Source: Acidovorax sp.
GTDB lineage: Bacteria > Pseudomonadota > Gammaproteobacteria > Burkholderiales > Burkholderiaceae_C
NCBI GenBank assembly: GCA_047601665.1
Contig: JASGIT010000001.1
Coordinates: forward strand, 96,638 to 160,637
Reading direction: 5' to 3'
Length of the DNA stretch: 64,000 nucleotides
In this document: piece by piece, positions 26,435 to 55,100 of the stretch
Layout of the letters: each line of letters begins with the position of its first letter
Position numbering within the stretch: position 1 is the first letter of the stretch
Position numbers and translations under genes: made by a program
Notes under the pieces: generated by a model
Database searches by the model: none
Told to the model about the DNA's origin: nothing
The model's input: the letters and a program-made list of their open reading frames with translations, nothing else

Positions 26435-26445
26435 TTGAAGTCTTA

Positions 26446-26521: not shown

Positions 26522-26534
26522 AGTCAGTAAAGGA

Positions 26535-26572
26535 AACCCCGCTATCTAAAAGATAGCGGGGTTTTTCTTTTT
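26535..26572 (+). terminator. rho-independent terminator after tRNA-Thr
   Basis: Perfect hairpin AACCCCGCTATCT / AGATAGCGGGGTT with a 3-nt loop, followed by TTTTTCTTTTT. Confidence 0.85.
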
Positions 26573-35370: not shown

Positions 35371-36978
35371 GGCCAATTCTGTTGAAAAACTCGCCTTGGA
35401 AGGCAGACTGGGTTCCCTGGTTCAGCACCAGCGAACGTCGCAATGAGTGTTGGGCATTGAGATCAGAAGGGGTTGCCCCCTTCCTGATCATCAAATCCCT
35501 TGCGTTGCCAGACCTTCCGCGGCGGGCATCAACCACTTCGCCGCAGATTCTGGGCCGTGGCCGCCATCAGGAACTCATCGCGTGCTCCGCTGAGGCCACG
35601 CAGTCTCAGACGATCAAGCTTCAGGATGCGTTTGAGATGGGCGAACAGCATCTCCACCTTCTTGCGATCGCGCCGGGACTGCTGGTACTCCGGTGTCTGG
35701 GCAATGGAACGTGCCACGTCACGCGCATTCTCGTGAATGCTGCGGGCGATCTTGCGGTGGGGCGTGTTGGGGCAGCAGCGCTCCTTGAGTGAACATGCCG
35801 CGCAGTCCATTTGGCTGGCCCGATAGATGACAGTATCGGCTTTGGTGATGTGGGTACGCGGATTCTTGAACTGGCGCCACTCGCTGCGCAGCGGGTGACC
35901 TTCGGGGCAGGTGTATTCGTTACGATCGGCGCTCCATTCAAAGTCGCTGATCGTCAGACTGCCATCCTTGCGGCCGGTCTTGTCCCACACTGGCACATGC
36001 GGCGCAATTCTCTTGTCCTCGACCATCCACGCGAGCATCGGTGCTGTGCCGTAGGCCGTATCTCCGACCAGGCAGCGTGGTTTGAGCTGGAATCGCTGCT
36101 CCACACGGTTGATCATCGTACGGGTGGAATCGACTTCTTCCGTCCGGTGCGCTGGCGTGGCCTCCACATCCACGATGATGCCTGCGGCCAAGTCAATCAG
36201 GTAGTTGGTCGAGTAGGCATAGAACGCAGGACCACCCGGTGCTGCAGTCCAGCGCGCAGCCGGATCGGTCAGAGAGATGTTCTTGGGCGGAACGCCCGGC
36301 CCCGAGCGCTCCGCAGGCGAGTCGTCTGCCACGGGGTTGTTCTCTTCAAGTCCAGCCAGGTACTCGCGAACCGCACGGCTGCATCCATTGCCCTTGCGCC
36401 AATCGATCTCTTCGTCGGAAACACCTCGTGCCCGGTTGGCATCGGCTTTGATGACGCTGGCGTCAATAGCGAAGCCTTCGCCGCGCACTAGTCCTTCAAC
36501 CATACAGCGGCGCAGCACCGTCTCGAAGACAAACGGAAAGCATCGCTCTGACGAAACCGGCCATGGCGGTTCTTGGAGAAGGTGGAGTGGTCAGGCACCC
36601 GGTCTTCCAAGCCCAGTCGGCAGAACCAGCGATAGGCCAGATTCAGATGAACCTCCTCGCACAACCGGCGCTCGGAGCGGATGCCGAAGCAATAGCCCAC
36701 GAGCAGCATGCGGATCATGAGCTCGGGGTCGATGGAGGGGCGGCCCGTGTGGCTGTAGAACGGGGCCAGATGCTGGCGCAGTGCGCCCAGATCCAGGAAC
36801 CGATCGACACCCCGCAGCAGGTGGTCGCGCGGAATGTGATCGGCCAGGTTGAATGCGTAGAAGAGCTGATCCTGGCTTGCCTTCTGTCCCATCATGGTGT
36901 GCGCCTCCGTCAGTGACGAAGGACTACCCACCGCTGATCCGGTTCCCGGACAAGGGGAGTTTTTCAACACAATAGGCC
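35371..36978 (-). mobile_element. IS1182-family insertion sequence, inactivated copy
   Basis: About 28-bp imperfect terminal inverted repeats: GGCCAATTCTGTTGAAAAACTCGCCTTG (35371-35398) against CAAGGGGAGTTTTTCAACACAATAGGCC (36951-36978). They enclose a split transposase gene. Confidence 0.8.
35529..36895 (-). pseudogene. IS1182-family transposase, frame-disrupted
   Basis: The N-terminal part (MMGQKASQDQLFYAFNL...NRHGRFRQSDAFR) and the DDE part (LRRCMVEGLV...EFLMAATAQNLRR) lie in different frames and join near 36500-36530. The C-terminus also seems shifted, since an ...AKWLMPAAEGL continuation lies in another frame. Confidence 0.75.
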
Positions 36979-37079: not shown

Positions 37080-37460
37080 ATGAAGCAAAGGCCACGGATC
37101 TACTACACCGAGACGCAGAAGGCGCTGATGTGGGAGCGCTGGAAAGCTGACGATACCTTGCACCAGATCGGCAAGTTGTTCGATTGATCGCACATCTCCA
37201 TTCAGAACATCCTGGCAGCGACCGGCGGCATCCGCCCCCCCGCGCGCCATCGGTTTTGTCTGGCACTACCCCTGGCTGAGCGCAAGGAAGCCTCTCGGGC
37301 ATTGGCTGCGGGCGAGTCCATTCATTGCGTTGCGGCTCGTTTGGGCAGAGCCGCATCCACCGTCAGCCGCGAGCTTCACCGTAACGGGGGCAAGAGCTGC
37401 TACCGGACCGCGCGAGCCGAAGAGGTAGCATGGGAACGCGCGCACCGCCCCAAGCCATGC
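37080..37460 (+). pseudogene. IS30-family transposase, N-terminal fragment with an in-frame TGA
   Basis: MKQRPRIYYTETQKALMWERWKADDTLHQIGKLFD-stop-SHISIQNILAATGGIRP...STVSRELHRNGG...RPKPC. TGA at 37185-37187 sits where relatives have Arg. The fragment is truncated at about 37460 by IS66 sequence. Confidence 0.7.
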
Positions 37461-37783
37461 ACATCGACATGCTGTGGCTATGCTCCCAGCCGCAGGACAT
37501 GCGCGCCGGCGCTGACCGGTTGCTCAACATCGTCGGGATGGCGCGTGCGCACCACGACTACCTGTTTGCCAACCTGCGCACCACGCGCATCAAGCTGCTC
37601 GTGCACTACGGCTTCGGTATGTGGTGCGCCACGCGCCGTCTGCACGAGGGGCACTTCGTCTGGCTGGAGCGTGCGCCAGGGCAGGTTGCAACGCTGCAGC
37701 TCAGCACGCGGCCGTTCGAAGCCCTGACGGTCGGCCTGCCCTGGCAGCGCCTGGGCGAGTTCAGCGTCATCAGCCGGACGTGA
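37457..37783 (+). CDS. tnpB: IS66-family accessory protein TnpB, orphan second copy
   Basis: MHIDMLWLCSQPQDMRAGADRLL...TRIKLLVHYGFGMWCATRRLHEGHFVW aligns by eye along its length with the intact TnpB at 60338-60679. No tnpA lies upstream. Confidence 0.7.
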   Translation: MHIDMLWLCSQPQDMRAGADRLLNIVGMARAHHDYLFANLRTTRIKLLVHYGFGMWCATRRLHEGHFVWLERAPGQVATLQLSTRPFEALTVGLPWQRLGEFSVISRT

Positions 37784-38199: not shown

Positions 38200-38697
38200 C
38201 TACGCTGCGGCGACCGCCATCTCGATTCGTCGCATGGACATTGGCAAGGCCGCGTACACCGCCGAATGCAGGATCACAGATGAGGTGAAAGACGCGGCGT
38301 TAAAGCCGATCCAGGGATATGTGAACAGAGAGGAATCGACAAGCAAGGTCGCGACGCCTGGCATGACGGGGGCAGCGAAAGGCGGGATGGCTCCTGCCTC
38401 CAGTCCATCACTTGCCTCGTGTACCTCCTGCGCACTCGCGAAGCGGAAGGCGCCGAGCTCGCGCCGCACAGCGTTGCTGTCGAGTCTGTGCATGCCTGGC
38501 AGCACTAGTAGTACGAAGCTAGGCGTCTTGCGTGGCACCACGATCAGCGCCTTGGCACCCACCGCCTCGGGGTACCCGGCCTGGCTTCGTGCCGCGAGGC
38601 TCTCCGCTGAACTGCGACACGGGGGATGCTCGATCACTTGATGCGCCGCCCCTGTCTCTCGCAGAAAGCCGTGCAGGCGTAGTTGTGGTGCTTTCAT
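38200..38697 (-). CDS. YbaK/EbsC/ProX-type aminoacyl-tRNA trans-editing (deacylase) domain protein
   Basis: 165 aa from ATG 38697. Fold-typical blocks GAKALIVVPRK..FVLLVLPGMHRLDSNAVRRELG and IPPFAAP. Lies 11 nt downstream of the oxygenase stop. A GTG at 38742 is an alternative start. Confidence 0.65.
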   Translation of the reverse strand: MKAPQLRLHGFLRETGAAHQVIEHPPCRSSAESLAARSQAGYPEAVGAKALIVVPRKTPSFVLLVLPGMHRLDSNAVRRELGAFRFASAQEVHEASDGLEAGAIPPFAAPVMPGVATLLVDSSLFTYPWIGFNAASFTSSVILHSAVYAALPMSMRRIEMAVAAA

Positions 38698-38708
38698 GCC
38701 GGAAGAGC

Positions 38709-39665
38709 CTAGTTTTTGGGGGGCAGGGCATGGGACGGCCACAGCGACCGCATGGCTTTAGCGGCGTCGAAGCGATGGGACTCGCCCGGAGACGAAGCGA
38801 GTTTCCAGTGCAGACGAAGGTCCGAGTTGAAGTAGGCGCGCACAGCCGCGCGGTCGGCACTAGTAGTCGCTTCGCGTGCGTGGAGCCCATAGCGATTGGG
38901 CAGGACAAGCAACGTTCCAGGCTCAAGTGCTACCCATTGCATGCGGTCCATCGCTAATTCACGAAGGAATTCGATCACGGCATGACCCAGGCGATCATTC
39001 GGATCAGCCGGGCGGACTGCATAAGTCGCCAGAGCAATGCGCGGCACGACATTGCGTTCGCCGTGAACCAGGGGAACGGGGCCAATCCAGACTTCGCCCA
39101 GACCCAGGCTCAGCGGCGCACGCAGCAACCACTTCTTCGAGCGCGCGTGCTGTTCGAAGGCGCGTGGAGCGCCTTCGAACAGCTCTAAACCGCGCACCCA
39201 GCCGGTACGCACGCCAGAGACATTTTTCAGCCCGCTGAGCACAATGTCCTCCGGGGACAGAGGACCGAGAGCGCTGTCGTCAGCATGCGGCAGGAACTCC
39301 CCGGGTGTCGCATTGGTGTTGTCAGGCGCGCCAGCCTTCGGCTCCAGAAGCTGGAAGAGCCCGCCCTGCGAAACCCAGTTCCATGGCGAGCCGCGGCGCG
39401 CGATTGCGGCCACCGCGGCAAGAACGAGAGCCGCTTGCTGGTAGTCGGCATCATCGGGAATCGGCAGGCCGCTGACCAACGTTGCGTCATCCTTCGCCAT
39501 CAGGCGCAGCTCATGGATCGCGGAGTCGAAGGGAAGCAAGGGCACGGCGAGATTGCTGGCCAGGTGAATATCGTGTTCGGAATTGATCCGGACGGTCTGG
39601 CGTGCCAAGTCGAGGGCGTGCGACAGTTGGTCGCGGCTCTTGGGCGAGAGAGAGATGCGTTGCAT
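38709..39665 (-). CDS. clavaminate-synthase-like / TauD-superfamily Fe(II)/2-oxoglutarate oxygenase (amino-acid hydroxylase-like)
   Basis: 318 aa. AAGGAG lies 7 nt upstream of ATG 39665. Candidate facial triad H-x-D in EFLPHADDS plus a distal His and Arg in NRYGLHAREA. The layout resembles VioC/AsnO-type hydroxylases. Confidence 0.6.
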   Translation of the reverse strand: MQRISLSPKSRDQLSHALDLARQTVRINSEHDIHLASNLAVPLLPFDSAIHELRLMAKDDATLVSGLPIPDDADYQQAALVLAAVAAIARRGSPWNWVSQGGLFQLLEPKAGAPDNTNATPGEFLPHADDSALGPLSPEDIVLSGLKNVSGVRTGWVRGLELFEGAPRAFEQHARSKKWLLRAPLSLGLGEVWIGPVPLVHGERNVVPRIALATYAVRPADPNDRLGHAVIEFLRELAMDRMQWVALEPGTLLVLPNRYGLHAREATTSADRAAVRAYFNSDLRLHWKLASSPGESHRFDAAKAMRSLWPSHALPPKN

Positions 39666-39902
39666 GGTCTAGCTCCTTTTCGTATGAGGTCCGTTGAGGT
39701 GGCGGGTGCAAAGGATGCGCACCGCATACAAGAAGAATCGCAAAAGCATCTCTCCATAGCCAGCGCTGTTTGGGGTAGCGATGGCGATCGGGACGCGACG
39801 ACTCCCTAGTGGCGCGAGCGGAAAAATCAGGTTGCGACGAGAATCCCTAGCGGCTGGGGACTGTGGTTCGTCTCCGTGCCGCCTACGACCAGGAGGAACC
39901 CA

Positions 39903-42900
39903 GTGGCCGCCGGTACGAACAGAAGCAGTCCCTACAGCCAAGCTGAGATTGAGGCTCTTTGGGCTGCGCTCGTCGAGGATGCGCGCAGCCCCAAAAAGCA
40001 GCATGAGTTGCTGGAAACGCTGAAAATAAAACGCAGCCTTTCCAGCCTTATCGATCGCAAGATCGGGCTTGGCGTGCAATTGCGTTGGAACCTGGCGATG
40101 CTGATCCTGACGGGCCGCGCCGGTCCAGCACCCAGCGAGGGAAAGGCATTGCTTGTGAAAGAGGTCAGGAAGCTCCTGGAGCTCACGACTGACTTCTTTC
40201 AGCTCAATCACGCAAATAGTGGCAGCAAGAAGGACGATAAGTCTGCGCTCCAGACGCGCATGGCAACCCTTCTTGTCGCGGCGCGCGACATTGCGGCCCT
40301 CGAGCGGCTCTGCGGGGTGCTGGCCAAGCGCTTCAGGGACGCCTACTTAGAAGCGCTGGGCGTTGATCAACTAACTGCGAACCAATTCCTCAGCCCCGTC
40401 TTTGGTCCGCAAGCGGTGCAGACCTTCATCCACCTGCTATGTACCGGGCATCTTCCGCTTGAGGTGCACACAACCCTGGTTTCGCAGGTCGACTACATCC
40501 CCAGCGACGAAAGAGACCACGAGTTCATGGTCCTTCTGGCACGGCTCGCTGGGCCGACCGATCGCCCCATCCAGGGGATCGCGATGCCGGGCTCCCCTAG
40601 CGGCCAGTGCGCAGTGGCACATGAGCTGGTGCGACGCCTGCAGGCGCCTGGCTCGGCAGGCGACTCGGACGCGCGGCCGATTGTCATGCTGCCCTGCGGT
40701 CGCCAGTACCGCAATCCGCACCATTGCGGCTTGGACTTTCTAGTGCAGAACCTGCTTTCGTTCTACGAGCGCCGGGAATTGCGCCATGACGTGCCCTCAC
40801 TCAGCGCCGACGAAATGCAAGGCGCGATCAAGGCGCTTCGCCAGCATCTTTGCCGCCGACCCATCATCGTCGTGCTGGTGGGCTATGAAGTAGTGCGTGG
40901 CTGTCAGCCGGCCTTGCGCCGCGCCATCCGCGACGAACCCTTGGCCCAGTTGCTGCCTCTCGTGATCCATCCCGGGGTCGGCAGTCTTGAGCTTCCGACT
41001 GCAGCCGCGACGTTTCAGAAGACAAGATGGATCATCTTCTCCGATGGCGAATTGGACTTGCTGGAGCCCTACTGCTCCAAGACCATCTGGATGCCGCCGC
41101 CCCCACCTGAAGCCGAAGAGAAAATCTTCAGCATGTTTACCAAGGAGCATCGGCATATCGCGCAGTTGCGCGAGATTTCCGCCTTATCTCCATTGCCGCT
41201 CTCCGAAGCCAAAGCCTGCACCGCATTGCAGATGATGGAGCTGAAGCAGTTTCGGGGGCCGCCTTTTGCGGGTGCATACGACGGCAGTGAACTTGGAAAC
41301 GGCATTCTGGCTCGTTTTGCCGAGGTTGTGCGCACTTGTGCTCCTCCCTTGGAGGCCGCCGCACTTCACCTGATTGCATTGGCCGGTGCCGGGCTTCGCC
41401 ATACCACGCTGTGGCAGTGCCTGCATGCATGGCGCCTCATCCCTCGCCCAACCGGCACGTTACCTTGTCCCGCACTACCTGAGGTCGAGGAGGCGGTGGC
41501 ATGGATGGACGAACTGCTGGATAACTACCAACGCGTGATCTACGACGGTATTGATGAGAGTGAGCCCAGTCTGAATCCACTGGACCATCCTTTCGAGTAT
41601 GTTGGTCATAGTGCCGCCTGCAATATGCAGGCGGAGTTGAAAAAGAACGACGCGCTCAAGAAGCAGGCTGCTTTCGTCCACAGATCGCTCGATTTTCGCT
41701 TCGTCGAAGTGCGAGAAGCGCTCACCGAGGACATGCGATTGCATGGTCCTTCCTGGTATGTGCAATCTCTCCACCGTGTATTGGCAAATGAAGCATTGCG
41801 GCAACACGCGCTGCTTGTGCGTCATGAGGCACCACAGTACCGCACGGCTCTGCGCGACGAGAGACGCGCACTCGAAGGGCTGTACCACGGTCTGCTGGCC
41901 CTTCCTGAGGTGGATACGTTACCGGAGACGACGCCGGAGCCCTGCCTTGCACATGCGGCTCCGGCCAGCGGCCTTCCGGGGGATTCCGTCGCTGCGTTTC
42001 AGTTCTTGCGCCGGGTGGTCTTTGGCAATCTTCTCGAGCGCAAGGACCAGTACCGTCTAAGCCGCCGCTGGGCTGCGGATGACATCAAGCTGGATGTCCT
42101 GGAGCTGATTCACTTGGCTTTCGCCACTACAGCGGATCGAGGGGCCGGGTTGAGCTTGCACCCCCTGTGGCACGCGAGGGGCCTGGTTCCCGATGCTGTG
42201 CTGACCTTGCGGCAGCACTGCGAGAGCATTGCCGTTGCTGCCTATGGCGCCAATGACATGGTGCGTTGGAACGACTTCACTGCCGGAGTTGGTGGGATGC
42301 ATGAGCTGACCGGGGACATTCCACTGCTGAAGCGTGTGGCCTTTGACATGTCGATGATCAGTCATGGTCCTGGCGCCGATCGAACCATCAGCATGGTCAT
42401 CCCCCCTCTTGAGGAGATGGGAGTCAAGGCCGAATCCTTCACCCGGGCGCCGTGGCGCAACGGCCGTCAGACTGGACTGGTCGTTCCTGACCCCAAGGAA
42501 CTGGAGACCTTTCTGGCCGACTGTCTATCGAATGCCTGCCACTCTCCACCTGCGCAATGGACGTCGTTGTCGGACTGGTTTGTCCGCCTGGGCGAGCTTC
42601 GCTACCAGCAGGCGCAAGCGAAAGGCGCGCGAGAGACCGTCCGTTGGCAACTTACCATGGAGTGCTTCGTGCAGGCGCAGATCGCCACGCGCTTGCGGAT
42701 GACTACATTGAATCACGAAGGGCTCTCAGGCAGTTCGCATCTTTCTGCAAGAGGCATCCGTCTGCTGGCCCGTGCAGCCCTGGATCTTCTGCGTTATCTG
42801 ATAAATGTTCGTGCCGATGCGGCAGCCGGGTTGGCCCCCACGCTGCGCGAATACCTTGTGGCTCAAGCCCGCCAGGCTCTCGACGCCTATGCCCTAAGCC

Positions 42901-43352
42901 GGGGCTACAACGAGCCGGATTGCGCGGGCATGCTTATCCTCGAGTCTCGATTTGCGCGGGTGGCTGGGCGAGAGGGCCCGCATCGCCACAGACGCCACCG
43001 CATTGCACTCGATTTTCTCCATGAAGCAGAAGGCCGCCTTTCGGGCATGCGCACGCGACACCGCTTGTGGCTGCACCTGCTTATCGAGCACTGCGCCACT
43101 TTGCGTGGCCTCGCCGCCGAAGCCATGGAGGAGCCTAAGTGGCCTGGCGAGCGCCGCATGGAAGTCGCGCGTCGCCTGTTGGGCTTGGCCCTGGCAGACG
43201 TCCGCCAACTGGAAAATATCATTGAAGCAGCCTACCCTGCGCAGCACACACGCGACGACTCGCGACGAGCCCTTTCAAAGTCTTGGCGGGACGCTGTAGA
43301 TCATCAGCGCAAACTGACGCATGAGCTGATCAAGAAGCTCCCTGCCGGATGA
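39903..43352 (+). CDS. large orphan protein (~1149 aa), possible degenerate STAND/P-loop-like core with a long helical-repeat C-terminus
   Basis: GTG 39903 lies 6 nt after a perfect AGGAGG; the listed ORF start at 39876 is in frame. Walker-A-like GIAMPGSPSGQCAVAHEL lacks the GK[ST]. Walker-B-like RRPIIVVLVGYE lacks an acidic pair. The C-terminal ~600 aa are Leu/Ala/Arg-rich amphipathic helices. No TM helix or signal peptide. Confidence 0.6.
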   Translation: MAAGTNRSSPYSQAEIEALWAALVEDARSPKKQHELLETLKIKRSLSSLIDRKIGLGVQLRWNLAMLILTGRAGPAPSEGKALLVKEVRKLLELTTDFFQLNHANSGSKKDDKSALQTRMATLLVAARDIAALERLCGVLAKRFRDAYLEALGVDQLTANQFLSPVFGPQAVQTFIHLLCTGHLPLEVHTTLVSQVDYIPSDERDHEFMVLLARLAGPTDRPIQGIAMPGSPSGQCAVAHELVRRLQAPGSAGDSDARPIVMLPCGRQYRNPHHCGLDFLVQNLLSFYERRELRHDVPSLSADEMQGAIKALRQHLCRRPIIVVLVGYEVVRGCQPALRRAIRDEPLAQLLPLVIHPGVGSLELPTAAATFQKTRWIIFSDGELDLLEPYCSKTIWMPPPPPEAEEKIFSMFTKEHRHIAQLREISALSPLPLSEAKACTALQMMELKQFRGPPFAGAYDGSELGNGILARFAEVVRTCAPPLEAAALHLIALAGAGLRHTTLWQCLHAWRLIPRPTGTLPCPALPEVEEAVAWMDELLDNYQRVIYDGIDESEPSLNPLDHPFEYVGHSAACNMQAELKKNDALKKQAAFVHRSLDFRFVEVREALTEDMRLHGPSWYVQSLHRVLANEALRQHALLVRHEAPQYRTALRDERRALEGLYHGLLALPEVDTLPETTPEPCLAHAAPASGLPGDSVAAFQFLRRVVFGNLLERKDQYRLSRRWAADDIKLDVLELIHLAFATTADRGAGLSLHPLWHARGLVPDAVLTLRQHCESIAVAAYGANDMVRWNDFTAGVGGMHELTGDIPLLKRVAFDMSMISHGPGADRTISMVIPPLEEMGVKAESFTRAPWRNGRQTGLVVPDPKELETFLADCLSNACHSPPAQWTSLSDWFVRLGELRYQQAQAKGARETVRWQLTMECFVQAQIATRLRMTTLNHEGLSGSSHLSARGIRLLARAALDLLRYLINVRADAAAGLAPTLREYLVAQARQALDAYALSRGYNEPDCAGMLILESRFARVAGREGPHRHRRHRIALDFLHEAEGRLSGMRTRHRLWLHLLIEHCATLRGLAAEAMEEPKWPGERRMEVARRLLGLALADVRQLENIIEAAYPAQHTRDDSRRALSKSWRDAVDHQRKLTHELIKKLPAG

Positions 43353-43624: not shown

Positions 43625-44176
43625 TCACCAAAGCCCCCTCTTGTTAATCTGCCCGAGCATCACCGTGAGCGCCTGCAGGACATCGGCCTCGCGAAATGCG
43701 GTTTCCACCACGGGCGCAACCGCCGCTGGACTGCCAGCAAGCTCCTGCACCCGGGCAAGCACTTGCTCCATCAGGCTGGTCCGAGGCACCAGCACATAGC
43801 GCACCTCGCAGTCCAGGCCACCGGCCAGGCGAGTCAGCGTTTTCAGTGAAATGGAGCCATCGGCCTCGGCCGCCTCCAGCTTGCGAACGCCCTGGCCACT
43901 CATGCGCAAGCGCTGGCCAAGTGTGTTGGAGCTCATGCCAAACGCCAAGCGGATGGTCTTCGTCCAGCCGCACCGGGGCGTGGCGTGCTGCTGCAGTTTG
44001 GCGAACTCGCGGAACTGGCAGTCAAGCTCGACCAGACGGGTGACGTTCAAGCGGTTTTTCAAAGAAGCGCTGGGGTAGACAGAGGCGGGCAACACGCAGG
44101 TTGCGTTGAGGCCCGGTATGAGCAACCGGGCAGTTTCCATTGGCGGGGCGGAACACGCAGGGTACGCCCTGACCAT
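43625..44176 (-). CDS. HTH protein of the mobile mystery protein A type (XRE-like)
   Basis: The core GWTKTIRLAFGMSSNTLGQRLRMSGQGVRKLEAAEADGSISLKTLTRLAGGLDCEVRYVLVPR matches my recollection of the TIGR02612-type family. The start is uncertain; ATG 44140 is an alternative. Confidence 0.6.
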   Translation of the reverse strand: MVRAYPACSAPPMETARLLIPGLNATCVLPASVYPSASLKNRLNVTRLVELDCQFREFAKLQQHATPRCGWTKTIRLAFGMSSNTLGQRLRMSGQGVRKLEAAEADGSISLKTLTRLAGGLDCEVRYVLVPRTSLMEQVLARVQELAGSPAAVAPVVETAFREADVLQALTVMLGQINKRGLW

Positions 44177-44249: not shown

Positions 44250-44690
44250 ATGTTGTGTGTAGAGAGAACGCAGCTTGGGCAGTTTGATGAAGCCGATCTG
44301 GCATCCTTGGTCAGGGCGGATGGGTGGCAGTCGATCCTGCCCCACGCCCTGCGGGATGAGCAGCTACTGTGCATTGCCGACCAACTGCGGGCCTTGCTAT
44401 CCGGCAAGGGCTGGGACACACCAGAGGAGTCAGGCAGTGCCGCGCTGGCGATGACACTTCTGCTGCTTTCCAAGGGGCGGGCAAAACACAGCCAGGGAAA
44501 CGGCTTGGAGGATGTGGAAATGGCGACCTTGCACGAAGTCATGACGCTGCTCAGCGTCACCGTGGATCGGGAAATCGTCAACCGGGTACTGCATTACCGC
44601 GAGGAGCCAACGGGCCCTGGCCTGCTGCAGGGGATCAAGGAGCTCATTCAGTACAGAGCGATCCCAGCCAGCTCTCCCTGCCTAGCCTAG
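44250..44690 (+). CDS. hypothetical protein (146 aa)
   Basis: Clean ORF with island-type codon usage. No motif recognised. Convergent with the XRE gene, sharing a CTAG stop overlap. Confidence 0.4.
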   Translation: MLCVERTQLGQFDEADLASLVRADGWQSILPHALRDEQLLCIADQLRALLSGKGWDTPEESGSAALAMTLLLLSKGRAKHSQGNGLEDVEMATLHEVMTLLSVTVDREIVNRVLHYREEPTGPGLLQGIKELIQYRAIPASSPCLA

Positions 44691-44998
44691 GCGGACTCGT
44701 CAGAGGCCAGTTCCAGGAAGTCGGCCTTGACGACCTCGAGGACTTTCTCGACCGCAGCGGCATCGAAGTCCGGGCAGTACGCGGCGGTGACGAGCGTCAT
44801 GGGATGGATCTGCAAGGTCTCGGCCAAGTTCTCGATGACGCGAATGCTCGGCACCTGGTGGCCCTGTTCGATGCGTCCGACATGCCGCCGGCTGGTTGCA
44901 AGAAGCAGATCCTCCTGGGTCATGCCACTGGCCGCGCGCATCTGTTGCAAGGCGCGGCCAAAGTCGGCTTTGGGAGGAGGATTTTTGCGAGTCGGCAT
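44687..44998 (-). CDS. XRE-family HTH transcriptional regulator
   Basis: 103 aa from ATG 44998. HTH_3-like block FGRALQQMRAASGMTQEDLLLATSRRHVGRIEQGHQVPSIRVIENLAETL. Confidence 0.7.
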   Translation of the reverse strand: MPTRKNPPPKADFGRALQQMRAASGMTQEDLLLATSRRHVGRIEQGHQVPSIRVIENLAETLQIHPMTLVTAAYCPDFDAAAVEKVLEVVKADFLELASDESA

Positions 44999-45124
44999 TG
45001 ACTCGATTTCCGCCTCGCGAGACCAAAAAGACCACAACCAACTAGTCCCATTTGAAGATCTTGACGCAGACAAAGTATGCCAAGTGCCTCCATGCCTGAC
45101 GCCGAGGAGTTCGTAGGTACCGAA

Positions 45125-45596: not shown

Positions 45597-46289
45597 CCAT
45601 GCGTGCGTGCGCTCGACCACCTAGCGGTGGCGCCCGAGCCGGTCCTTGCGCTCGATGCCTTTGCGGGCAATGCGGTCCTGGATGCCTCGGCGCTTGAGGT
45701 GAGCGCGGCATCTCAGATAGTCATAACCCTTGTCCACATGCAGCTTACCGGGCCGCCAGCGCGGCCGCCCCTGTTTTCCAGCGACCGCCGGCAGCGCGTC
45801 GATCGGTTCCTCGAAGACCACCGAATCGTGGCGGTTGGCTCCGGTGACACAGAAGATCAGCGGGATGCCCTGGCGGTCGGTGACGACGTGGCGCTTGCTG
45901 CCAAGCTTGCCGTGGTACGTGGGGTTGGGGCCCGTGTGCGGCCCCCCGGGGCGGGTCACGCTGGCCCCATCGACGCTGACGCGGCTGAAGTCCAGCCTGT
46001 CGGCACTGCGCAGTTCAGCCAGCAGCAGTTGGTGCAGTCGATGCCACACGCCTGCAGCCTGCTAGTCGCGCAGGCGGCGCCAGCAGGTCATGTCGCTGCC
46101 AAAGCCCATCTCCTGGGGCAGCTCCTCCCAGGGAATGCCCGTGCGCAGCACGAACACGATGCCGTTGAGCGCCTGTTCGTTGCTCAGGCATGGCCGACCG
46201 CCCTTGGCAGAGGGCACCACCACGGGCAGCAATGGCGCAATCTTTGTGTACAGCGCCGCGCTAATTTTTCTGTTCTTGCTTCGACTCAT
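45597..46289 (-). pseudogene. IS5-family (IS427/IS1031-like) transposase with two in-frame amber codons, 3'-truncated
   Basis: One continuous frame reads MSRSKNRKIS...TCWRRLRD-TAG-QAAGVWHRL...LGRHR-TAG-VVERTHAW. The TAGs (46062-46064 and 45621-45623) sit where the family has conserved Trp. Homology ends after ERTHAW. Confidence 0.75.
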
Positions 46290-46337
46290 GCACCAGCAAC
46301 CGTTCAACCCAGCAGAGCCGATGACGGGTATTGTTAG

Positions 46338-47198
46338 CCGCTCTTAGAGCGTGTTTACGATCTCTTTCCCGACAATCCTTGTGTGAAGAGAAAGCAGTAC
46401 CCAAGCGACATCAGTCGAGAGAAGTTTGCCGAGATCGAGCCGCTGCTGCGCAGCGTTCGGCGCAGCACCAAACCGATCAAGCAGGATCTGTACGAGGTGT
46501 TCTGTGCAGTGCTGTACCTGCTTCGCACGGGTTGTCAGTGGCGCTATCTGCCGCCGCAGTTCCCCAAGTGGCACAACGTCTATGCGTACTGGCGCAAGTG
46601 GAGCGAACCTGACCAGCACGGAGTGAGCGTGCTGGAGCAGGCTTTAAAAAAATCAGGTTGGCGCGGCCCGAGAGAGACTGGGGCGCAACGCTTGCAGCGC
46701 GTTCTTGATCGTGGACGCGCAGAGCGTGAAGAACACGGACACGGCAGGGTTTAAGGGCTATGACGCAGGCAAGAAAGTCTCGGGCATCAAGCGACACATC
46801 GCGGTGGACACCCAGGGGCTACCCCATGCAGTGGTGGTAACCACAGCCGAAGTGACTGATCGCAAAGGAGCGCTTGCGGCATTCAAGCGCTGCAAGCAGT
46901 CGTTGGGGCAGGTGCAAAGCGTGCTGACGGACAGCGGCTACACAGGCGAGCCCTTCGCGCAGGGCCTCAAGGACATCCTGGGTGAGCATGTGACGGTGCA
47001 GATTGCCAAGCGAAGCGAACTGCACGCCTTCAAGGTCATGCCCAAGCGCTGGATCGTCGAGCGCAGCTTTGCCTGGCTGGAGAAGAATCGCAGGCTGTGG
47101 AAGAACTGCGAGCGTTGGCTCAACACCAGCTTGCAGTTCGTCCACTTGGCGTTTCTGGCTCTGCTGCTCAGGAGATCGTAAACACGCTCTTAGAGCGG
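46338..47198 (+). mobile_element. IS5-family insertion sequence (861 bp), structurally complete
   Basis: 27-bp terminal inverted repeats with 1 mismatch: CCGCTCTTAGAGCGTGTTTACGATCTC (46338-46364) against GAGATCGTAAACACGCTCTTAGAGCGG (47172-47198). They enclose a two-frame transposase. No clear target duplication seen. Confidence 0.85.
46383..47181 (+). CDS. IS5-family transposase in two overlapping frames (46383-46754 and 46648-47181) bridged at an A7 run
   Basis: OrfA reads MKRKQYPSDISREKFAEIEPLL...YWRKW. OrfB reads ...IVDAQSVKNTD...DSGYTGEPF...WIVERSFAWLEKNRRLWKNCE (DDE). The A7 run is at 46646-46652. OrfB is in the +1 frame relative to OrfA. Confidence 0.8.
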
Positions 47199-48648: not shown

Positions 48649-50376
48649 ATGCCCGCCCCGCTCGCGTCCACCGTCGAGCAGGAGCTTCTCGACGCCTATG
48701 CACAGCAGGGACCGCGAGTTCCGATTGCCGTGTTGCTGTCCGCGCTGTTGATCGTCGCAATGGCCTGGAGCACGGCGCCTCTGGGCCTAAGCATGGGGTG
48801 GCTTGCCGCCGTCGCCATGGTCCTGATCATCCGCAGCGCGGTGCATCTGTGGGCTTCCCGGTCGCACCGCGTGCCGACTCGGCGCCGCATGTGGGCGGTG
48901 ACCGTGGTCAGCCTTCTGGGCGGCATCGCACACGGTTCGTCGATCCTCTTCTGGCCTTACCTGTCCGACCTCGAGCGTGCGGTGCAGTCCACTTATGTAC
49001 TGGCGCTTTCTTCGGGGGCGGTCGCGGCGGTAATCGGCTACATGCCGGTCTTCGTGGCGTACATGCTGCCATTGTTTCTGCCGTTGGTGTACAGCTGGGT
49101 CGTGATGCTGGCCACAGCGGCAGACGGGATGCACCGTGGCACGGCGGCTGTGATCTTGCTGCTTTTCAGCATCTACGGCGGCCTGCTGATCGTGCTAGCG
49201 CGCGACACCTTCAACCATTACCGCGAGTCGTTCGACACTCGGTGGAAGCTGCACGAGGCGCTTGAGCGTGCCGAGTCGGCCAGCCGCGCGAAGACCCGTT
49301 TCCTCGCATCGGCCAGCCATGACCTGCGCCAGCCGATGCACACACTCACGCTGTTCGGAGCGGCGCTCGCAGTGATGAGCCTGCCCGACCGCGCGCGCCA
49401 CGTGGTCAGCCAGATGAATCTGGCGCTGCTGGCCCTGAGCGAACAGCTCGACGCGCTGCTCGACGTGTCCAAACTGGATGCGGGCGTGATGCCCGTCAAC
49501 CTGCAGCCGTTGGCACTGCACCGCTTGCTGGAGCCGCTCGGATTGGAGTACGAGGCCGCAGCGCGCCGCAAAGGCCTGGCGTTCAATTTGGCTTGCGAGC
49601 ACGATCTGGTGGCGATGGCCGACCGGTCGCTTCTTGAGCGCGTGTTCCGCAATTTGATCGACAACGCTGTCAAGTACACGGTTGCTGGCCGCGTGCAGGT
49701 CGCAGCGCATGCCGAAAACGGCAACATCATCGTGCGCGTGAGCGACACCGGCATCGGCATTCCCGCGGTCGAGTGCGAACACGTGTTTGAGGAGTTCTAC
49801 CAGATCGGCAACCCTGAACGCGACCGCAGTCAGGGCATGGGCCTTGGGTTGTCGATCGTTCGCCGTCTGGTGGATCTGATGCAACTGACGCTTGAACTTC
49901 GATCGACGCCGGGCGCCGGCACCGAGGTGACGCTGGGGCTGCCGCGCACGTCTCCGCTCGCGCCGATGGCCGAACCGTTAAAGCCGGTACCGGCCGATGT
50001 CGCCGGGTTACATCTGCTGGTCATTGACGACGAAGAACAAGTGCGCCAAGGTATGCAGATCGTGCTCGAAGGGCTGGGCTGCGAAGTGGTCACTGCCCGC
50101 GATCGCGCCACCGCGCATGCCGCCGCCGACCGGCACAGGCCTGACGTGGTGCTCGCCGATTTCAGACTGCGCGGACAGGACACCGGCATCGCGGTCATCA
50201 AAGAGTTGCGCCGCCGCTGGCCTGGTCTGCCGGCACTGCTGGTCAGCGGCGACACCGCGCCAGAGCGTTTGCGGGAAGCCGATGCTGACGGACTGCATTT
50301 GTTGCACAAGCCTGTGCAACCGCATGCCCTGATACAGGCGATCCGCGACGCAGCTGATGGCGTCGTGGGTCGCTAG
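48649..50376 (+). CDS. hybrid sensor histidine kinase / response regulator with a membrane-embedded N-terminal sensor
   Basis: About 6 TM helices, H-box SASHDLRQPMHTL, N-box RNLIDNAVKYT, G-boxes DTGIGIP and GMGLGLSIV, C-terminal REC domain (LLVIDDEEQV..VVLADFRL..LLVSGD). Confidence 0.88.
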   Translation: MPAPLASTVEQELLDAYAQQGPRVPIAVLLSALLIVAMAWSTAPLGLSMGWLAAVAMVLIIRSAVHLWASRSHRVPTRRRMWAVTVVSLLGGIAHGSSILFWPYLSDLERAVQSTYVLALSSGAVAAVIGYMPVFVAYMLPLFLPLVYSWVVMLATAADGMHRGTAAVILLLFSIYGGLLIVLARDTFNHYRESFDTRWKLHEALERAESASRAKTRFLASASHDLRQPMHTLTLFGAALAVMSLPDRARHVVSQMNLALLALSEQLDALLDVSKLDAGVMPVNLQPLALHRLLEPLGLEYEAAARRKGLAFNLACEHDLVAMADRSLLERVFRNLIDNAVKYTVAGRVQVAAHAENGNIIVRVSDTGIGIPAVECEHVFEEFYQIGNPERDRSQGMGLGLSIVRRLVDLMQLTLELRSTPGAGTEVTLGLPRTSPLAPMAEPLKPVPADVAGLHLLVIDDEEQVRQGMQIVLEGLGCEVVTARDRATAHAAADRHRPDVVLADFRLRGQDTGIAVIKELRRRWPGLPALLVSGDTAPERLREADADGLHLLHKPVQPHALIQAIRDAADGVVGR

Positions 50377-51530
50377 ATCAGGTGTGCAAAAGCATGGTCG
50401 CGGTCAGCGCCGTGAGCTGATCGGAACACCACCTCTAGCGGTGCGCCGTCGGTTCCGGTGATCTCGAGGAAGCCGTCGTCGAGGTGCTCAGGGAAGTACG
50501 CCACAACCGTGGCGGTCCAGCTTGCACCTGACGGGCTCACGAAATCGAACGAATCCATCTCAGCGAAGTCCTCCGGCACAGCGTTGGCGAAGGGGTAAGG
50601 TGCGTAAAGCGCCCCGGCGTGCACCGACCACAGCTTGACGACCGTTCGATCCACACCATTGCGCTGGAGCGTGATCTCCGCGACGCAAGGAATGTGCTCG
50701 TCGCCTGAGAGGAACACACAGTTTTTCAAACCGCAGTCGACAATGTGGCCGAGCACCTCGTGCAACGACGAGGGGTAGCCGTCCCACGCGTCGGAACGGA
50801 TGGCCGCACCTGAGGTGCTTTCGACTGTGGTGAGGCGGCGAGGGAGCAATATGGACGACGTCGCGACGAATTTCCACGCTGCGGCGGGCGCTCGGCCAAG
50901 CGTGCTGACGAGAGCGCCCATCTGTTCGCTCGACATGATTCGCGCCGCTTTGAGGTCTCTGGCGTCGCGCACGCTGCGCTCGGTCCGCGAATCGCCGATG
51001 AAGAGGCAATGGCCGGAGAGAAGTTGCGCCGGCCCGAACAGCGACGGCCGCGCAGGCGGATGTTCTATGCCGCGCTGCTTCTGCAAGAAGAGAGAGATGG
51101 CGGCTGCCATATCCGCTTCGAGTTGGCTGTTCCGAGCGACATGCGCACTGGGTTCCCAGTTGTCTCCCACCTCATGGTCGTCCATCAAGGCCACGTGCTT
51201 GAAGTTCTCGATCGCCATGTTGCGCCACACCTCTTTGCCGAGGGTTGCGTAGGCTCGTTCCAACGGCGCGTCCCTTTGTCGGGGATCGAACAGGCCAGCC
51301 GTGGCATCCACGTAGATCTGATCACCGGTCATCACCAGATCGGCACGAGAACTTTGACTAATTTGGATCTCGCTGTTGCGGTGAAGCCATCGCCTGAAGG
51401 CATGATCGGATGGTCCCGGCAGATTGGCAGAGTCAGTCAGTGGCCCGTTAGGTTTTGGACGGCGCGATCGCTCAAGCAGGCCGCCTGGGTATTGGCAGGC
51501 GGCGAGCACCAGGTACACTTGGGTCGTCAC
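50373..51530 (-). CDS. PhoD-like metallophosphatase without a signal peptide
   Basis: Motifs GDQIYVDA, DDHEVGDNW, FLSGDEH. GTG 51530 overlaps the stop of the upstream gene (GTGA). The N-terminus MTTQVYLVLAACQYPGG has no twin-arginine motif. Confidence 0.7.
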   Translation of the reverse strand: MTTQVYLVLAACQYPGGLLERSRRPKPNGPLTDSANLPGPSDHAFRRWLHRNSEIQISQSSRADLVMTGDQIYVDATAGLFDPRQRDAPLERAYATLGKEVWRNMAIENFKHVALMDDHEVGDNWEPSAHVARNSQLEADMAAAISLFLQKQRGIEHPPARPSLFGPAQLLSGHCLFIGDSRTERSVRDARDLKAARIMSSEQMGALVSTLGRAPAAAWKFVATSSILLPRRLTTVESTSGAAIRSDAWDGYPSSLHEVLGHIVDCGLKNCVFLSGDEHIPCVAEITLQRNGVDRTVVKLWSVHAGALYAPYPFANAVPEDFAEMDSFDFVSPSGASWTATVVAYFPEHLDDGFLEITGTDGAPLEVVFRSAHGADRDHAFAHLI

Positions 51531-52163: not shown

Positions 52164-55100
52164 TCAAGTAGGAGAGCTGAGGAATGACAGGATGACGTCG
52201 AACGCTTTGCCACGATCACGACCAATCAGTAGATCCTGATGGCCGATTCGTTCGAAAACCTGTGGAGGGGACATCTTTGTCAGCTGTTTATCTCTTTTCC
52301 ACTCCATCAACATCTGCGCGTTCGCGCCGGTATCGGCCAGCCCGTTGGTACGCCCGTGCAGGCTTAGCATGCGTACGCCTGTCAGCAGATGCCAAGGGTC
52401 TTCACCGAACACACTTAGACCTGTTTGCTCGGCAGGTTCGCCGTACTTTGCAAAGTAAATGGGCTGCGAAATGGTCGCCAGGTTCAGCGGACCGAAGAAG
52501 TCGTCAATGCAAGCAAGCACTTCCTCGTCCATCGTGCGCGAATCGAAAGTGCGGCCAATCAGCGCATCCAGCCGGCGGCGCGTGCCAACCCATGGTCGGC
52601 GAAGCCACGGAAGTCGAGGGTTCTCGATGTCGAATTCAGACCCGTCCTCATCATCTAGGTACGGTAGCGTCGCGATGAGGCGGTCGTACAGCGTAGCGTC
52701 GACTCGACCGACGCGCTCCCCGGGGCGCAGGCTGTAGTGGAAGTCCGGCAACAGGTGGCGGAACCAGCTCAGCAGGTACGCACGCAGCAGGTTGGCCGGA
52801 GCGAAGCGCATCTTTGTGCCAAATTGCGACATCACCCAGCAGCGCATGCGTGCGGCCGTCGCTGCGGCGTGCGGCTGGCCTTGGTCGCTCAGCGTCATCG
52901 TCAGCATAACGGACCCCATGCAGTGCGAGACTACGTCCACCTGCGGCATACCGGTCCGTGCGCAGACCTCGCGCAGCGCGGCCGGAATGTCATGGCGTGC
53001 GATCTCCTCAAAGCTGTAGGCGTGATCGGCGGTCGGCATCCCGCAGCTCGTCCGCATGTCAAGCACCCAGGGTTCGCGGCCGTGGCGCCACAGATACTCC
53101 GCAAGGCTGGGCCGCAGCGCGGGATGCGCGAAGGTCGTTCCGCTGGCGCTGTAGCCGTGGATCATAAGCACCGGGGGGTGAAGAGCTTTGGCCACGGGAT
53201 AGCGTGTCAGCCGGATCTCGCCGGCCGACGATCCGTCGGGTACGAACTCGAAGATCTCGGGCTCGGGTAGGCCGGGCAAAGCGCCAGGCAGGCGTTGGGC
53301 CGCCCGTACCGTGCGCGCCTGGTCAGGCTTTCGGCCACTCCACAAGTGGACGCTGACGAACACGCGAAGCACATAGAGCGTGAATGCCAGGACGTCGATC
53401 AGTGCCGCCGGCTGGTTTTCCTGCCCGACCACCCTTATCAGTGGTATCTGTCTGCGGGCGAAGTAATCAAGGCTGACGTCGATACTGCGCCTGGCGCCCA
53501 GCTGCAATCCGCCGAATGCTGCCAGCTTCATCCGCGTCAGCTGAGTCCAAGGGTTGGCGCGCCGATCGTAGGTAAAGCGCTTGCCGCCTTTCAGCACGAG
53601 GCCGTGCTGGCCGACCAGTTTTGCGAAGCGGCGTGTCGCTTCCTGCAAGCGCTGAGCATCGTCCTTGAACTTTGGATCGAAGGGCGGGATCAGTGGCGCT
53701 CCCAGCTTAAGGTCGTAATCGAAGAGTCGCACCTCGCCGGCACGTGTAGCCAGCGCCAGCGACTGGCAAAAGCGATCCCTCACCGAGAAGGCCGTGGCGC
53801 TCTTTCGACCCTGGATCTTGTCGAGCGCGACGTCGATCAACGCGAGGACGCTATCACGCAAGCCGCGGTTCCACAGCCAAGCGGTCCATGCGCGGCATCG
53901 GCGCAGCTTCCACGTCGACGACTCGCGATGCAGGAAGCGCAGTGTGCTGCCCGCGGCTAGGGGCACCCTGAGCATAGGCGGGTCGGATTCCAGATCTTCG
54001 GACATGTAGTCGCCGACCTTCCATCGGTACAGGCGGACCTCGCTGAGCGTGTCGTCAACGGCGACCTGCAGAACGTGCCCCTGCTGCGTGAAAGCTGGGC
54101 GGCTACCATCGTCGGGCGTTGGACCGGGAAATAGCGCACGCGGCTCGTAGACAAGCGAGAGTTGCATCCACGCAGGCTCACCGTCGAGGTCGACCGGCCC
54201 GGATAGCTTCTCGATCACCTGCACCTCGGTGCGTCGGGGAATCGGCCTGCCATTGCGCTGCGCGAAGACAGGACGCGGCACGGATAGCGGAACCTTTGGC
54301 GACGCTGGTCGGGTGAGCGCCCAGTGCACGTCAATCAAGCGTTCGATGGCGAGGTCCGCGAGCGTCGAAATGGTCAGTGCCGGGTTGATGCCGATCGACC
54401 CAGGAACGATGGCGCCGTCCAGCACCACAAGGCCTTCGTGGACTGCCGTCAACTTCGCCTCAGCCGCTCCGTCAAAGACACGTCCGTCCCGGTCGACCAC
54501 GCCGTGACTGCGGTCGTCCGCCATGCAGCACCCGCCAAGTGGGTGGACACTGACCAACGGACCGCGTTCAGCGCCGAGGGTCTTTTCGGCTCCGGGCGGC
54601 AGGAGCTTCCACACAGGATTGGGAATCAGTCTGTCAGATGCCCCCAGCATCTCTGCAAAAGCCTTATGAGCCTGGTCGAAGCGTTCGTCGTTGCGCAGCC
54701 TGCGCCAGTCGATGCGCACCCCGGCATCGAGCGGAAGTTCGTGGTCCTGCGGAGCTGCCGTCATGACGCCGTCGGCGCCGTCGCGAGCAATCAGCGCGAC
54801 CACCTGCGAACGCTCGATCTGCCCTGGATCGACAGCAAGCGGGTCGGGTGCGCTTGCCGCCCCTGGGTCGTCGTGAGCGAGGTGGACGTCGAGATCGGGC
54901 TCGTCAAGCTTGTGCAACAGCAAGGCCGTGGTCACGCCCTCCTCAAGCAGCCGCACGAGCGCGCCTGGCACGGCGAGGTCCTGCACGACGAAGCCCCCGC
55001 CGGCGTTGCGCTTGTCGATCATGGTCGTGATGGTCGGCCCAACCTGGCGCGCGGCCGGCGCCACCACCTCATCCGCCACTCCGTGGAACACGCGCTGCTG

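Follow-up and report, generated by a model that had tools for sequence, protein, structure and literature searches.

What does the large gene at positions 39903-43352 of the 64-kb window encode, and what could its product do? The window is the whole stretch of 64 000 nucleotides of Acidovorax sp. DNA (contig JASGIT010000001.1) that was analysed; an earlier note had described the product as an orphan protein with a degenerate P-loop and a long helical arm, possibly a non-catalytic sensor of the STAND type. STAND proteins act as central switches in the innate immunity and cell death of animals, plants and bacteria, and their signalling is usually accounted for by ATP/ADP exchange at a canonical P-loop. 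We hold with moderate confidence that the large gene, solitary and acquired by horizontal transfer, belongs to an unannotated family of STAND-like switches and that its product works without canonical nucleoside triphosphatase (NTPase) chemistry. The STAND-like reading is supported by the architecture of an AlphaFold2 model, by structural matches to human SAMD9 and to AAA domains and by the family-wide profile of residues at the Walker-like site.

The frame is open without interruption on the + strand from 39876 or 39903 through 43352, and the start, a GTG 6 nt past a perfect AGGAGG, was seen where the earlier note had placed it. The product from 39903 is matched exactly by the NCBI hypothetical protein QM740_00615, from a metagenome-assembled genome of Acidovorax sp. 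The GC content at the three codon positions (0.68/0.46/0.68) is a coding signature; given this signature and the full-length homologues described below, we consider the open reading frame (ORF) to be coding.

The family and its Walker-like site

A word-indexed search of 5.8 billion proteins yielded no relatives other than P0002 (47% identity) and P0003 (33%), which align at full length, and feeding profiles to the same search added no members to these three proteins. An exhaustive hidden Markov model search with the three-sequence profile, against 1.84 billion representatives of clusters formed at 50% identity, gave 227 clusters at E<=1e-3 and 66 at E<=1e-30; the protein is therefore no orphan. 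Nearly all members have lengths of 1050-1350 aa. All of them are labelled hypothetical and most are metagenomic singletons, with named members coming from Acidovorax, Massilia, Undibacterium, Phenylobacterium and Maricaulis. The window protein had no match in Pfam, NCBIfam, PADLOC or sequence searches of the PDB; 39 diverse members, compared one by one with Pfam, NCBIfam and PADLOC, produced noise only, and PDB sequence and profile searches with the full protein, with a 62-sequence profile and with the conserved block (amino acids 601-740, see below) gave no match. Named members were also absent from the supplementary tables of a STAND survey preprint. Two metagenome locus scans yielded no confirmed locus, and a scan of a genome collection returned only the already known Massilia locus. 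Thus, the family is real, rare and unannotated, and the suggestion of a new family made in the earlier note holds in the sense that Pfam, NCBIfam and PADLOC do not contain it. What is new here is a solitary, full-length, lysine-less family of proteins, with a nucleotide-binding oligomerisation domain (NOD) followed by a solenoid, that is absent from current annotation libraries. A family definition would annotate several hundred hypothetical giant genes in Proteobacteria.

To characterize the Walker-like site, all profile-search matches were aligned to the profile and residues were counted per column. The two segments quoted in the earlier note as nucleotide-binding-like were located at amino acids 230-242 (GSPSGQCAVAHEL) and 318-329 (RRPIIVVLVGYE). 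The family consensus of the Walker-A-like loop (MPGSPSGQCAVAH in the window protein) is G-M-P-x-G-L-[T/R/S]-A-[L/F]-A, with G230 found in 60% of the aligned members, G234 in 72% and A237 in 83%. At position 235 Leu prevails (76%), whereas Lys was seen there in 0 of 100 aligned members; the residues at position 236 are T33/R23/S22/E8/C7/K2. The window protein reads G230-S-P-S-G234-Q-C236, which does not conform to GxxxxGK[ST]; the exact GSPSGQC is confined to this protein and P0002, while P0003 carries GSPTGLC. Relatives retaining an intact GK[ST] were sought as well, and none was observed at the aligned site. At the Walker-B-like strand, position 326 is Asp in 87 of 133 members (65%) and Val in 18 of 133, followed by G327 in 90%; the segment in the window protein, L-V326-G327-Y-E, does not qualify as a Walker B motif. 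Conservation nearby is high: R313, just before the strand, is Arg in 129 of 132 members (98%), D344 is conserved in 77% and R375 in 70%.

Residues at the two positions are not independent. We observed that Thr or Ser at 236 co-occurs with Asp or Glu at 326 (counts 36/2/18/22, Fisher p = 1.3e-6). In the clade of the window protein (P0001-P0016, P0021 and P0038) the residue at 236 is C, K, E, R or N and that at 326 V, C, F or T, with Cys236 and Val326 fixed in the seven closest members. The window protein departs from the consensus also elsewhere, the full set being L235Q, D326V, R505Q, E629N, S666A, Y703R, R708G, R1007C, R1058H and R1063H.

As judged from these columns, the missing Walker A lysine is ancestral to the whole family. 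The ancestral site, with G-G-L-[T/S], an Asp ending strand 3 and a G-x-R motif in the lid, looks nucleotide-competent, and in the window clade both canonical Mg ligands are, on this alignment, replaced by conserved residues, Cys236 and Val326. Since lysine at 235 was found in none of the 100 aligned members and C236 and V326 are conserved in the clade, the site is likely to be under constraint rather than to be eroding. We infer that NTPase chemistry has been lost in the window protein. The idea of a degenerate P-loop thus stands as far as the absent lysine is concerned, with which the family-wide motif profile agrees, and fails with respect to decay, the absence being ancestral and the replacements conserved. 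The comparison proposed in the earlier note, whether homologues keep GK[ST] and an acidic pair (DD/DE), turned out differently from an intact motif: GK[ST] occurs in none, most members keep one Asp, and the window clade has neither.

A family of more than 200 clusters with a full NOD-plus-solenoid and never a Walker A lysine is a natural test case for switching without canonical nucleotide chemistry, and it may provide a prokaryotic counterpart with which to compare the unusual ATP site of human SAMD9.

Predicted architecture and comparison with known systems

The AlphaFold2 model built on 62 family members has pLDDT 89.9 and pTM 0.92 (with three sequences only, pLDDT was 45 and the model was unusable). 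It consists of a helical N-terminal region (13-214), an alpha/beta domain (221-400), a helical lid (402-511), an alpha/beta winged-helix-like part (528-598) and unbroken helical hairpins from 601 to 1143, an alpha-solenoid of ∼550 aa. The long C-terminal helical arm noted earlier is therefore present: the confident model is all-helical past about aa 600. The alpha/beta domain has strands at 223-227, 260-264, 322-328 and 375-380, with two helices inserted past strand 2; a Gly-rich loop follows strand 223-227 and leads to helix 232-247.

In a Foldseek search of the PDB the top three matches were chains of human SAMD9, with E = 8e-5 to 8e-4 and probability 0.99-1.0 over about 920-960 columns; below them in the ranking were generic solenoids (karyopherins, FANCI and PIKK; TPR and IFIT). 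The confident local matches among viral models were AAA-domain proteins (probability 0.99-1.0, ∼270 columns). The fold was assigned from whole-chain matches together with the order of secondary-structure elements.

For membership we used the criteria for STAND NTPases that Leipe, Koonin and Aravind reportedly laid down in 2004. The order of secondary-structure elements in the model fits that of a P-loop ASCE domain, and no sequence profile ties the family to NTPases. A helical domain and a winged helix, followed by a repeat sensor, are predicted at 402-511, 528-598 and 601-1143. Thus, the large protein is STAND-like in its predicted fold and yet fails the sequence-defined tests for Walker A and Walker B. 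The earlier proposal of a non-catalytic STAND-type sensor with a helical arm fits the model and the SAMD9 and AAA matches; the part of it that supposed decay of the Walker motifs does not survive.

The regions outside the alpha/beta domain differ in their conservation. Amino acids 1-150, covered by only ∼20 aligned family members, have conserved residues R44, D51, G55-L56-G57, R61 and W62, and BLAST clustering sorts the N-terminal segments into 20 groups, of which the largest has 81 of 116. A paired adaptor domain of the EAD type was considered here and rejected, as a profile of the N-terminal 155 aa found no second copy in the neighbours at 15 loci. The following family-wide segment, amino acids 151-220, has F162, G168, A171, F175, L179, G182 and R204 conserved. 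In the lid, G497 is conserved in 93%, R499 in 90% and T502 in 89% of members; the G-x-R motif may be likened to the sensor-2 region of ORC/Cdc6-type AAA+ proteins, whose GDAR motif is the basis of the comparison. In the winged-helix-like domain the model has two helices (528-541 and 571-586) and two strands (546-550 and 594-598); H562 of this domain is a conserved residue of the window clade and, beyond it, of roughly half the family.

Amino acids 601-740 form the most conserved block, with the pattern HRLLAEEALRQ...RH...RRxxxALYHGxxSLP...LYxxxYRxxLE...LSR...K and conserved sites at R640-H, R654-R655, L-Y-H662-G663-x-x-S-L-P, Y703, R708, E712, R721 and K729. H662-G663 is invariant and R655 is conserved in 86%; in a sub-alignment of 27 sequences the His is likewise invariant. 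Many distant family proteins match only in this block. Its R655-x6-H662 spacing fits the Rx4-6H motif of HEPN domains, and one of 27 segments had a weak HepT-like match (E = 0.049), beyond which searches with the block alone (27 segments) found no Pfam relative and no PDB relative; a HEPN-like site here may be taken as a lead only. Past the block, coverage drops from ∼144 members to ∼52 over amino acids about 745-900, and because of this collapse we regard the insert as a candidate specificity region. Within the C-terminal solenoid, amino acids 900-1075 are conserved with recurrent Arg/Glu positions; the recurring sites are R953, R957, R990, D994, E1014, R1019, E1062 and R1063 (the last is His in the window protein).

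Human SAMD9 belongs to the STAND proteins; its domain order is NBD-HD1-WHD-HD2 and then TPR, and it binds ATP tightly in spite of a Walker A without lysine (742-GGT-744) (PMC13600222). It is the best structural match of the large protein, and in both, helical repeats come after a NOD. Neither has the Walker A lysine, the site being GGT in SAMD9 and G-L-[T/S] in the family, and the compact model of the large protein (pTM 0.92) is consistent with a closed, solenoid-wrapped state. The parallel is partial at the level of residues: many family members have G-L-T/S together with Asp326, whereas the window protein has Cys236 and Val326 and thus lacks the Mg-binding Thr and the Walker B Asp-Asp. In contrast to SAMD9, the large protein has no SAM, AlbA/tRNase or SIR2 domain (it has no Pfam match, and its N terminus is all-helical), its C terminus stays helical up to the final residue and has no OB barrel, its helical lid is large rather than reduced, and there is no detectable sequence similarity between the two. 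As SIR2, tRNase and OB domains are missing, we do not consider it a member of the SAMD9 family.

Inactive STAND (iSTAND) modules are known from ternary MoxR-vWA systems and from BREX (BrxB/BrxF/PglW) (PMC7159879, PMC12839542). What the large protein has in common with them is a STAND-derived alpha/beta core in which Walker A and B are eroded, and iSTANDs have been proposed to be non-catalytic sensors. However, they belong to multi-gene systems, with MoxR and vWA partners or within BREX, and no such genes were found within ∼6-8 kb of the large gene in the window or at 13 related loci; membership in a MoxR-vWA or BREX system was rejected accordingly. Modules of the BrxB type are also small and have no helical bundle, while the large protein keeps the lid, the winged-helix-like domain and a 550-aa solenoid. 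Since the partner genes are absent and the lid and winged-helix domain are kept, it is not an iSTAND of these systems.

With the antiphage Avs proteins the family shares a layout of a single large gene encoding an N-terminal module, a NOD and a helical sensor, as well as a patchy, mobile distribution. A precedent without ATPase motifs exists in KpAvs8, an Avs8 homologue with degenerate Walker motifs, and Avs5, Avs6 and Avs9 are SAMD9-like (bioRxiv 10.64898/2026.01.04.697583). Yet PADLOC has no match to the window protein or to 39 members, there is no recognisable effector, and the Walker A lysine is absent family-wide here, as opposed to single Avs members. The large protein is therefore not a recognised Avs.

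Large regulators of the MalT/LAL and AfsR/SARP-STAND types are similar in size (about 900-1150 aa), combine a NOD with a helical-repeat sensor and, as here, may be encoded by a large gene divergent beside a candidate target operon. Regulators of these types have kept the Walker A and B motifs intact and depend on ATP. Scans of the window protein and of 39 members, with matches accepted up to E<=0.1, gave no DNA-binding domain of the LuxR or SARP/OmpR type, and because of this lack of a helix-turn-helix (HTH) domain we do not regard the protein as a regulator of the recognised MalT/AfsR class.

Possible functions

If the STAND-like reading is correct, the window protein would perform no canonical NTP hydrolysis and would act as a ligand-gated conformational switch or as a scaffold. 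The solenoid with its variable insert would bind the trigger; binding would loosen the closed packing of the solenoid on the NOD and so free the N-terminal domain or an oligomerisation surface, with an output probably linked either to conflict with mobile elements or to control of the divergent cargo operon. We consider the two outputs, that of an Avs-like conflict receptor and that of a regulator of the divergent operon, to be roughly equally likely. A real tie to the divergent enzyme cassettes would represent a new sensor-cargo arrangement.

A number of observations weigh against the STAND-like switch. The SAMD9 matches have a low global TM-score (0.17-0.21), and their E-value is merely ∼10-fold better than that of generic solenoid matches. 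There is no sequence-level tie to any STAND family through Pfam, NCBIfam, PADLOC or PDB profiles, and no effector or DNA-binding domain is recognisable in the window protein with Pfam, NCBIfam and PADLOC. No known defence gene was recognised beside the large gene in the window, where its company is insertion sequence (IS) elements, XRE genes and enzymes only. Searches of sequenced plasmids and phages with tblastn found no homologue, and a scan of viral contigs gave no confirmed locus. Finally, the loss of NTPase chemistry is deduced from residues alone, while SAMD9 is a case of a non-canonical site that still binds ATP.

Some of these points would be expected if the protein were a structural alpha-solenoid scaffold, with an alpha/beta domain of other evolutionary origin than the P-loop NTPases and a merely superficial likeness to STAND proteins: no sequence profile links it to any NTPase, generic solenoids make up most of the PDB matches, and the TM-score against SAMD9 is just 0.21. 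We consider this very unlikely, because the three SAMD9 chains rank first with probability 0.99-1.0 over ∼950 columns, local matches to AAA domains reach the same probability of 0.99-1.0, and the succession of a strand, a Gly-rich loop, a helix, a hydrophobic strand running to Asp-Gly, a G-x-R lid and a winged-helix-like part is that of a NOD. Still less can be said for a decaying pseudogene or a spurious frame in GC-rich DNA. The GC content at third codon positions is lower in the large gene (0.68) than in the adjacent core gene (0.88), and the gene stands among IS elements; however, the 3.4-kb frame is intact behind a strong ribosome-binding site, relatives align end to end, the substitutions C236 and V326 are conserved in the clade, and the confident AlphaFold2 model depends on covariation within the family. 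The end-to-end relatives, the 227 clusters and the model effectively refute this explanation, which we hold to be most improbable.

One could regard the protein as an Avs-like single-gene antiphage receptor, in which binding of a phage protein to the solenoid leads to oligomerisation and a novel N-terminal helical domain then brings about abortive infection. The architecture with SAMD9 as its best match, the existence of SAMD9-like Avs5, Avs6 and Avs9 and of KpAvs8 with degenerate Walker motifs (bioRxiv 10.64898/2026.01.04.697583), the gene standing alone as a single unit, the clade-specific N-terminal regions and variable solenoid insert, and the occurrence of a rare, patchy family in mobile or defence-like DNA (loci L014, L002, L011 and L005, and plasmid-like L003 and L004) all speak for such a receptor. 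It is possible, and to our minds rather doubtful, given that PADLOC models matched 0 of 39 members, that Pfam scans of these 39 revealed no known effector domain, that the large gene has no recognised defence gene beside it in the window and that a strong bias to divergent orientation is not a known trait of Avs. The bias would fit a large regulator of the MalT/AfsR type, with a STAND-like core sensing a small molecule and a novel DNA-binding surface, N-terminal or winged-helix-like, acting on the promoter shared with the neighbouring operon, here the TauD-like and YbaK-like genes, and so controlling it. AfsR is an example of the well-established STAND regulators that have their DNA-binding domain at the N terminus. 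In 11 of 12 independent loci the upstream gene points away from the large gene, 215-430 bp separating the two, a desaturase operon is kept at 54-57% identity in L001 and L002 although their large proteins are only about one-third identical, and the rare hexamer CCCTAG is clustered in the intergenic region of the three closest loci, with an 18-nt element common to the window and L001. We nevertheless consider a regulator unlikely: scans of the window protein and of 39 diverse members turned up no DNA-binding family, HTH or other, even at E<=0.1; from one locus to another the partner operons show no relationship, several being just small hypothetical ORFs; CCCTAG is missing from the intergenic regions of more distant loci and could instead be bound by the XRE regulators encoded nearby; and at L014 the upstream gene is co-directional.

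One could also speculate that the family is a hitherto unrecognised bacterial branch of the SAMD9-type lysine-less NOD lineage, nucleotide-independent in the window clade, with a HEPN-like RNase site (R-x6-H-G, amino acids 655-663) of its own, and that it works together with swappable divergent enzyme cassettes. We regard this combination as quite improbable. A hint at a tRNA-directed function comes from the three closest loci, because each pairs an iron oxygenase with a tRNA-hydrolase-like protein encoded by non-homologous genes; if the combination were true, the family would amount to a conflict module acting on tRNA, in analogy to the tRNase activity of SAMD9.

Setting in the window and at related loci

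Positions of the features are given in Table 1.

Table 1. Features of the large gene, its product and its surroundings in the 64-kb window
Feature	Position	Strand	Basis or remark
Coding sequence, 1149 aa, including stop codon 43350-43352	39903..43352	+	ORF list, translation, full-length homologues, 227 family clusters
Ribosome-binding site AGGAGG, 6-nt spacer before GTG at 39903	39891..39896	+	Direct sequence reading
Clade-specific N-terminal helical domain, aa 1-150; candidate output domain	39903..40352	+	AlphaFold2, coverage
Family-wide helical segment, aa 151-220	40353..40562	+	Conservation profile; AlphaFold2 helices 159-214
Alpha/beta nucleotide-binding-like domain, aa 221-400	40563..41102	+	AlphaFold2, pLDDT mostly >90; Foldseek AAA-domain and SAMD9 matches
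Walker-A-like loop, aa 228-240, without lysine	40584..40622	+	Column counts
Walker-B-like strand, aa 318-329, Val326 for family Asp	40854..40889	+	Column counts
Helical lid, aa 402-511, motif G497-x-R499-x-x-T502-L503	41106..41435	+	AlphaFold2 helices, conservation
Winged-helix-like domain, aa 528-598, contains H562-P-F-E-Y	41484..41696	+	AlphaFold2 secondary structure
Most conserved family block, aa 601-740	41703..42122	+	Coverage 144 of about 146; densest conserved positions
Variable helical insert, aa about 745-900; candidate ligand-specificity region	42135..42602	+	Coverage drop; helical in AlphaFold2
Conserved C-terminal alpha-solenoid, aa 901-1143	42603..43331	+	AlphaFold2 long helical hairpins, conservation, generic solenoid/TPR/IFIT matches
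Divergent intergenic region, 237 bp	39666..39902	.	Two CCCTAG sites (39804-39809, 39845-39850)
Divergent two-gene operon	38200..39665	-	TauD-like gene first, YbaK/tRNA_edit gene second, 34-nt overlap
IS with 28-nt inverted repeats	35371-36978		DDE transposase split in two overlapping ORFs (35529-36518, 36488-36970)
IS66 TnpB remnant	37430-37783		∼72-75% identical to part of complete IS66 copy at 59940-62397
XRE-type HTH genes	43625-44176 and 44687-45073		
DDE transposase remnant	45621-46049		
IS5-like element, 27-nt inverted repeats	46338-47198		

The GC content drops at ∼35 kb, from about 0.67-0.72 just upstream to 0.59-0.65 onward, and the lower-GC island that begins there is a mosaic of IS elements (35371-36978, 37430-37783, 45621-47198 and 59940-62397). 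The IS-rich, lower-GC setting with XRE genes described in the earlier note was therefore seen again. The same is true of the divergent position of the large gene with respect to an oxygenase/YbaK pair, both genes of which lie on the - strand, and of the lack of a recognisable effector, HTH or transmembrane domain in Pfam, NCBIfam and PADLOC scans. A defence-island context was not borne out in the window, where no recognised defence gene adjoins. In the divergent operon the product of the second gene (38200-38742, -) is a YbaK/aminoacyl-tRNA-editing-domain protein (Pfam tRNA_edit, E = 5e-16). The first gene (38709-39665, -) encodes a candidate TauD-like iron/2-oxoglutarate oxygenase: the match to Pfam TauD is weak (E = 0.0018, worse than the curated cutoff), and by direct reading LPHADD and, later, GLHAR fit an HxD...H triad. 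A functional tie between this operon and the large gene is possible.

We compared neighbourhoods at 13 related loci. As said above, 11 of 12 independent loci have an upstream gene that is transcribed from the opposite strand, and in most related loci the downstream gene converges on the large gene; from this arrangement we conclude that the large gene is monocistronic and solitary. The neighbours themselves are mutually unrelated, except for L001 versus L002, so the oxygenase/YbaK pair, for which the earlier note had suggested a check of conservation, was rejected as a family-wide neighbourhood: neighbours differ at nearly every locus. The divergent genes encode a CHAP protein and a 292-aa protein on the plasmid-like contig of L003, an M23-peptidase operon at L005 (with a CHAT operon downstream), a radical SAM protein, an amine oxidase and an S9 peptidase at L007, a glycine-transporter-like protein at L010, a collagen/CBM96 protein at L012 and small hypothetical ORFs at L004 (plasmid-like), L008 and L013; L014 has no divergent gene, its upstream gene being co-directional, and lies in an island with an integrase, ScoMcrA/HNH and DUF2779. 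Across the loci the neighbours include IS elements, toxin-antitoxin genes, Fic, plasmid replication genes, an integrase with a McrA-like HNH gene and a CHAT operon; in particular, toxin-antitoxin, Fic and PIN genes are present at L002, and a DpnII fragment is found at L011.

At L014, the sole locus seen with a co-directional upstream gene, the core-family member P0024 is located in the integrase island (2266-6478 and 10584-12068) with ScoMcrA_N/HNH (McrA-like), DUF2779 and XRE. Directly downstream of P0005, a convergent operon of four genes (469, 453, 536 and 442 aa) was observed at L005 (10524-16133, -) and L006 (7864-13473, -); it encodes a CHAT-protease-like protein, has a faint DUF900 match and resembles a conflict system.

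The operon common to L001 and L002 encodes a small transmembrane protein (∼70 aa), a fatty-acid-desaturase-like protein and a DUF2000 protein, at 54-57% identity, while the large proteins have only about one-third of residues in common. The DUF2000 proteins have weak similarity to PTH2 and match PDB 2GAX. It was observed that at each of the three closest loci an iron oxygenase and an aminoacyl- or peptidyl-tRNA-hydrolase-like protein are encoded divergently (window 38200-39665; L001 284-1994; L002 4485-6096; all -) by non-homologous genes, TauD-like plus YbaK in the window and desaturase-like plus DUF2000 at L001 and L002. With only two independent cases, the pairing could be either coincidence or analogous replacement.

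In the intergenic region of the window, 2 of the 5 CCCTAG/CTAGGG sites of the whole 64 kb fall within 39666-39902, and the one site that L001 has anywhere (2140-2145), like the one in L002 (6269-6274), lies in the equivalent region of its locus. An 18-nt element at 39842-39859, AATCCCTAGCGGCTGGGG, aligns with L001. The hexamer or the longer element may serve as an operator or promoter element; CCCTAG was not found in the intergenic regions of more distant loci, and a consensus promoter scan of 39666-39902 detected no sigma-70-like site.

Further observations concern other genes in the window. A PhoD-like phosphatase gene (50373-51530, -) lies ∼7 kb downstream of the large gene, and at L007 another PhoD gene (10625-12301, -) is located directly downstream of the homologue; the presence of PhoD genes near both is probably a coincidence. 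The same lower-GC island contains a 1347-aa ORF (52164-56207, -) for a flavoenzyme similar to GMC/cholesterol oxidases (GMC_oxred_N, GMC_oxred_C) with a C-terminal alpha/beta-hydrolase region. At 57477-59827 (+) a gene for a 510-aa protein without a Pfam match is followed, with a 4-nt overlap, by one for a 273-aa cysteine protease of the papain family (C1), a pair unusual for a betaproteobacterial island. Two more GC troughs (0.58-0.60) were observed beyond the island, at 14001-16000 and 26001-27000, the latter coinciding with the sole tRNA gene, tRNA-Thr(CGT), at 26446-26521.

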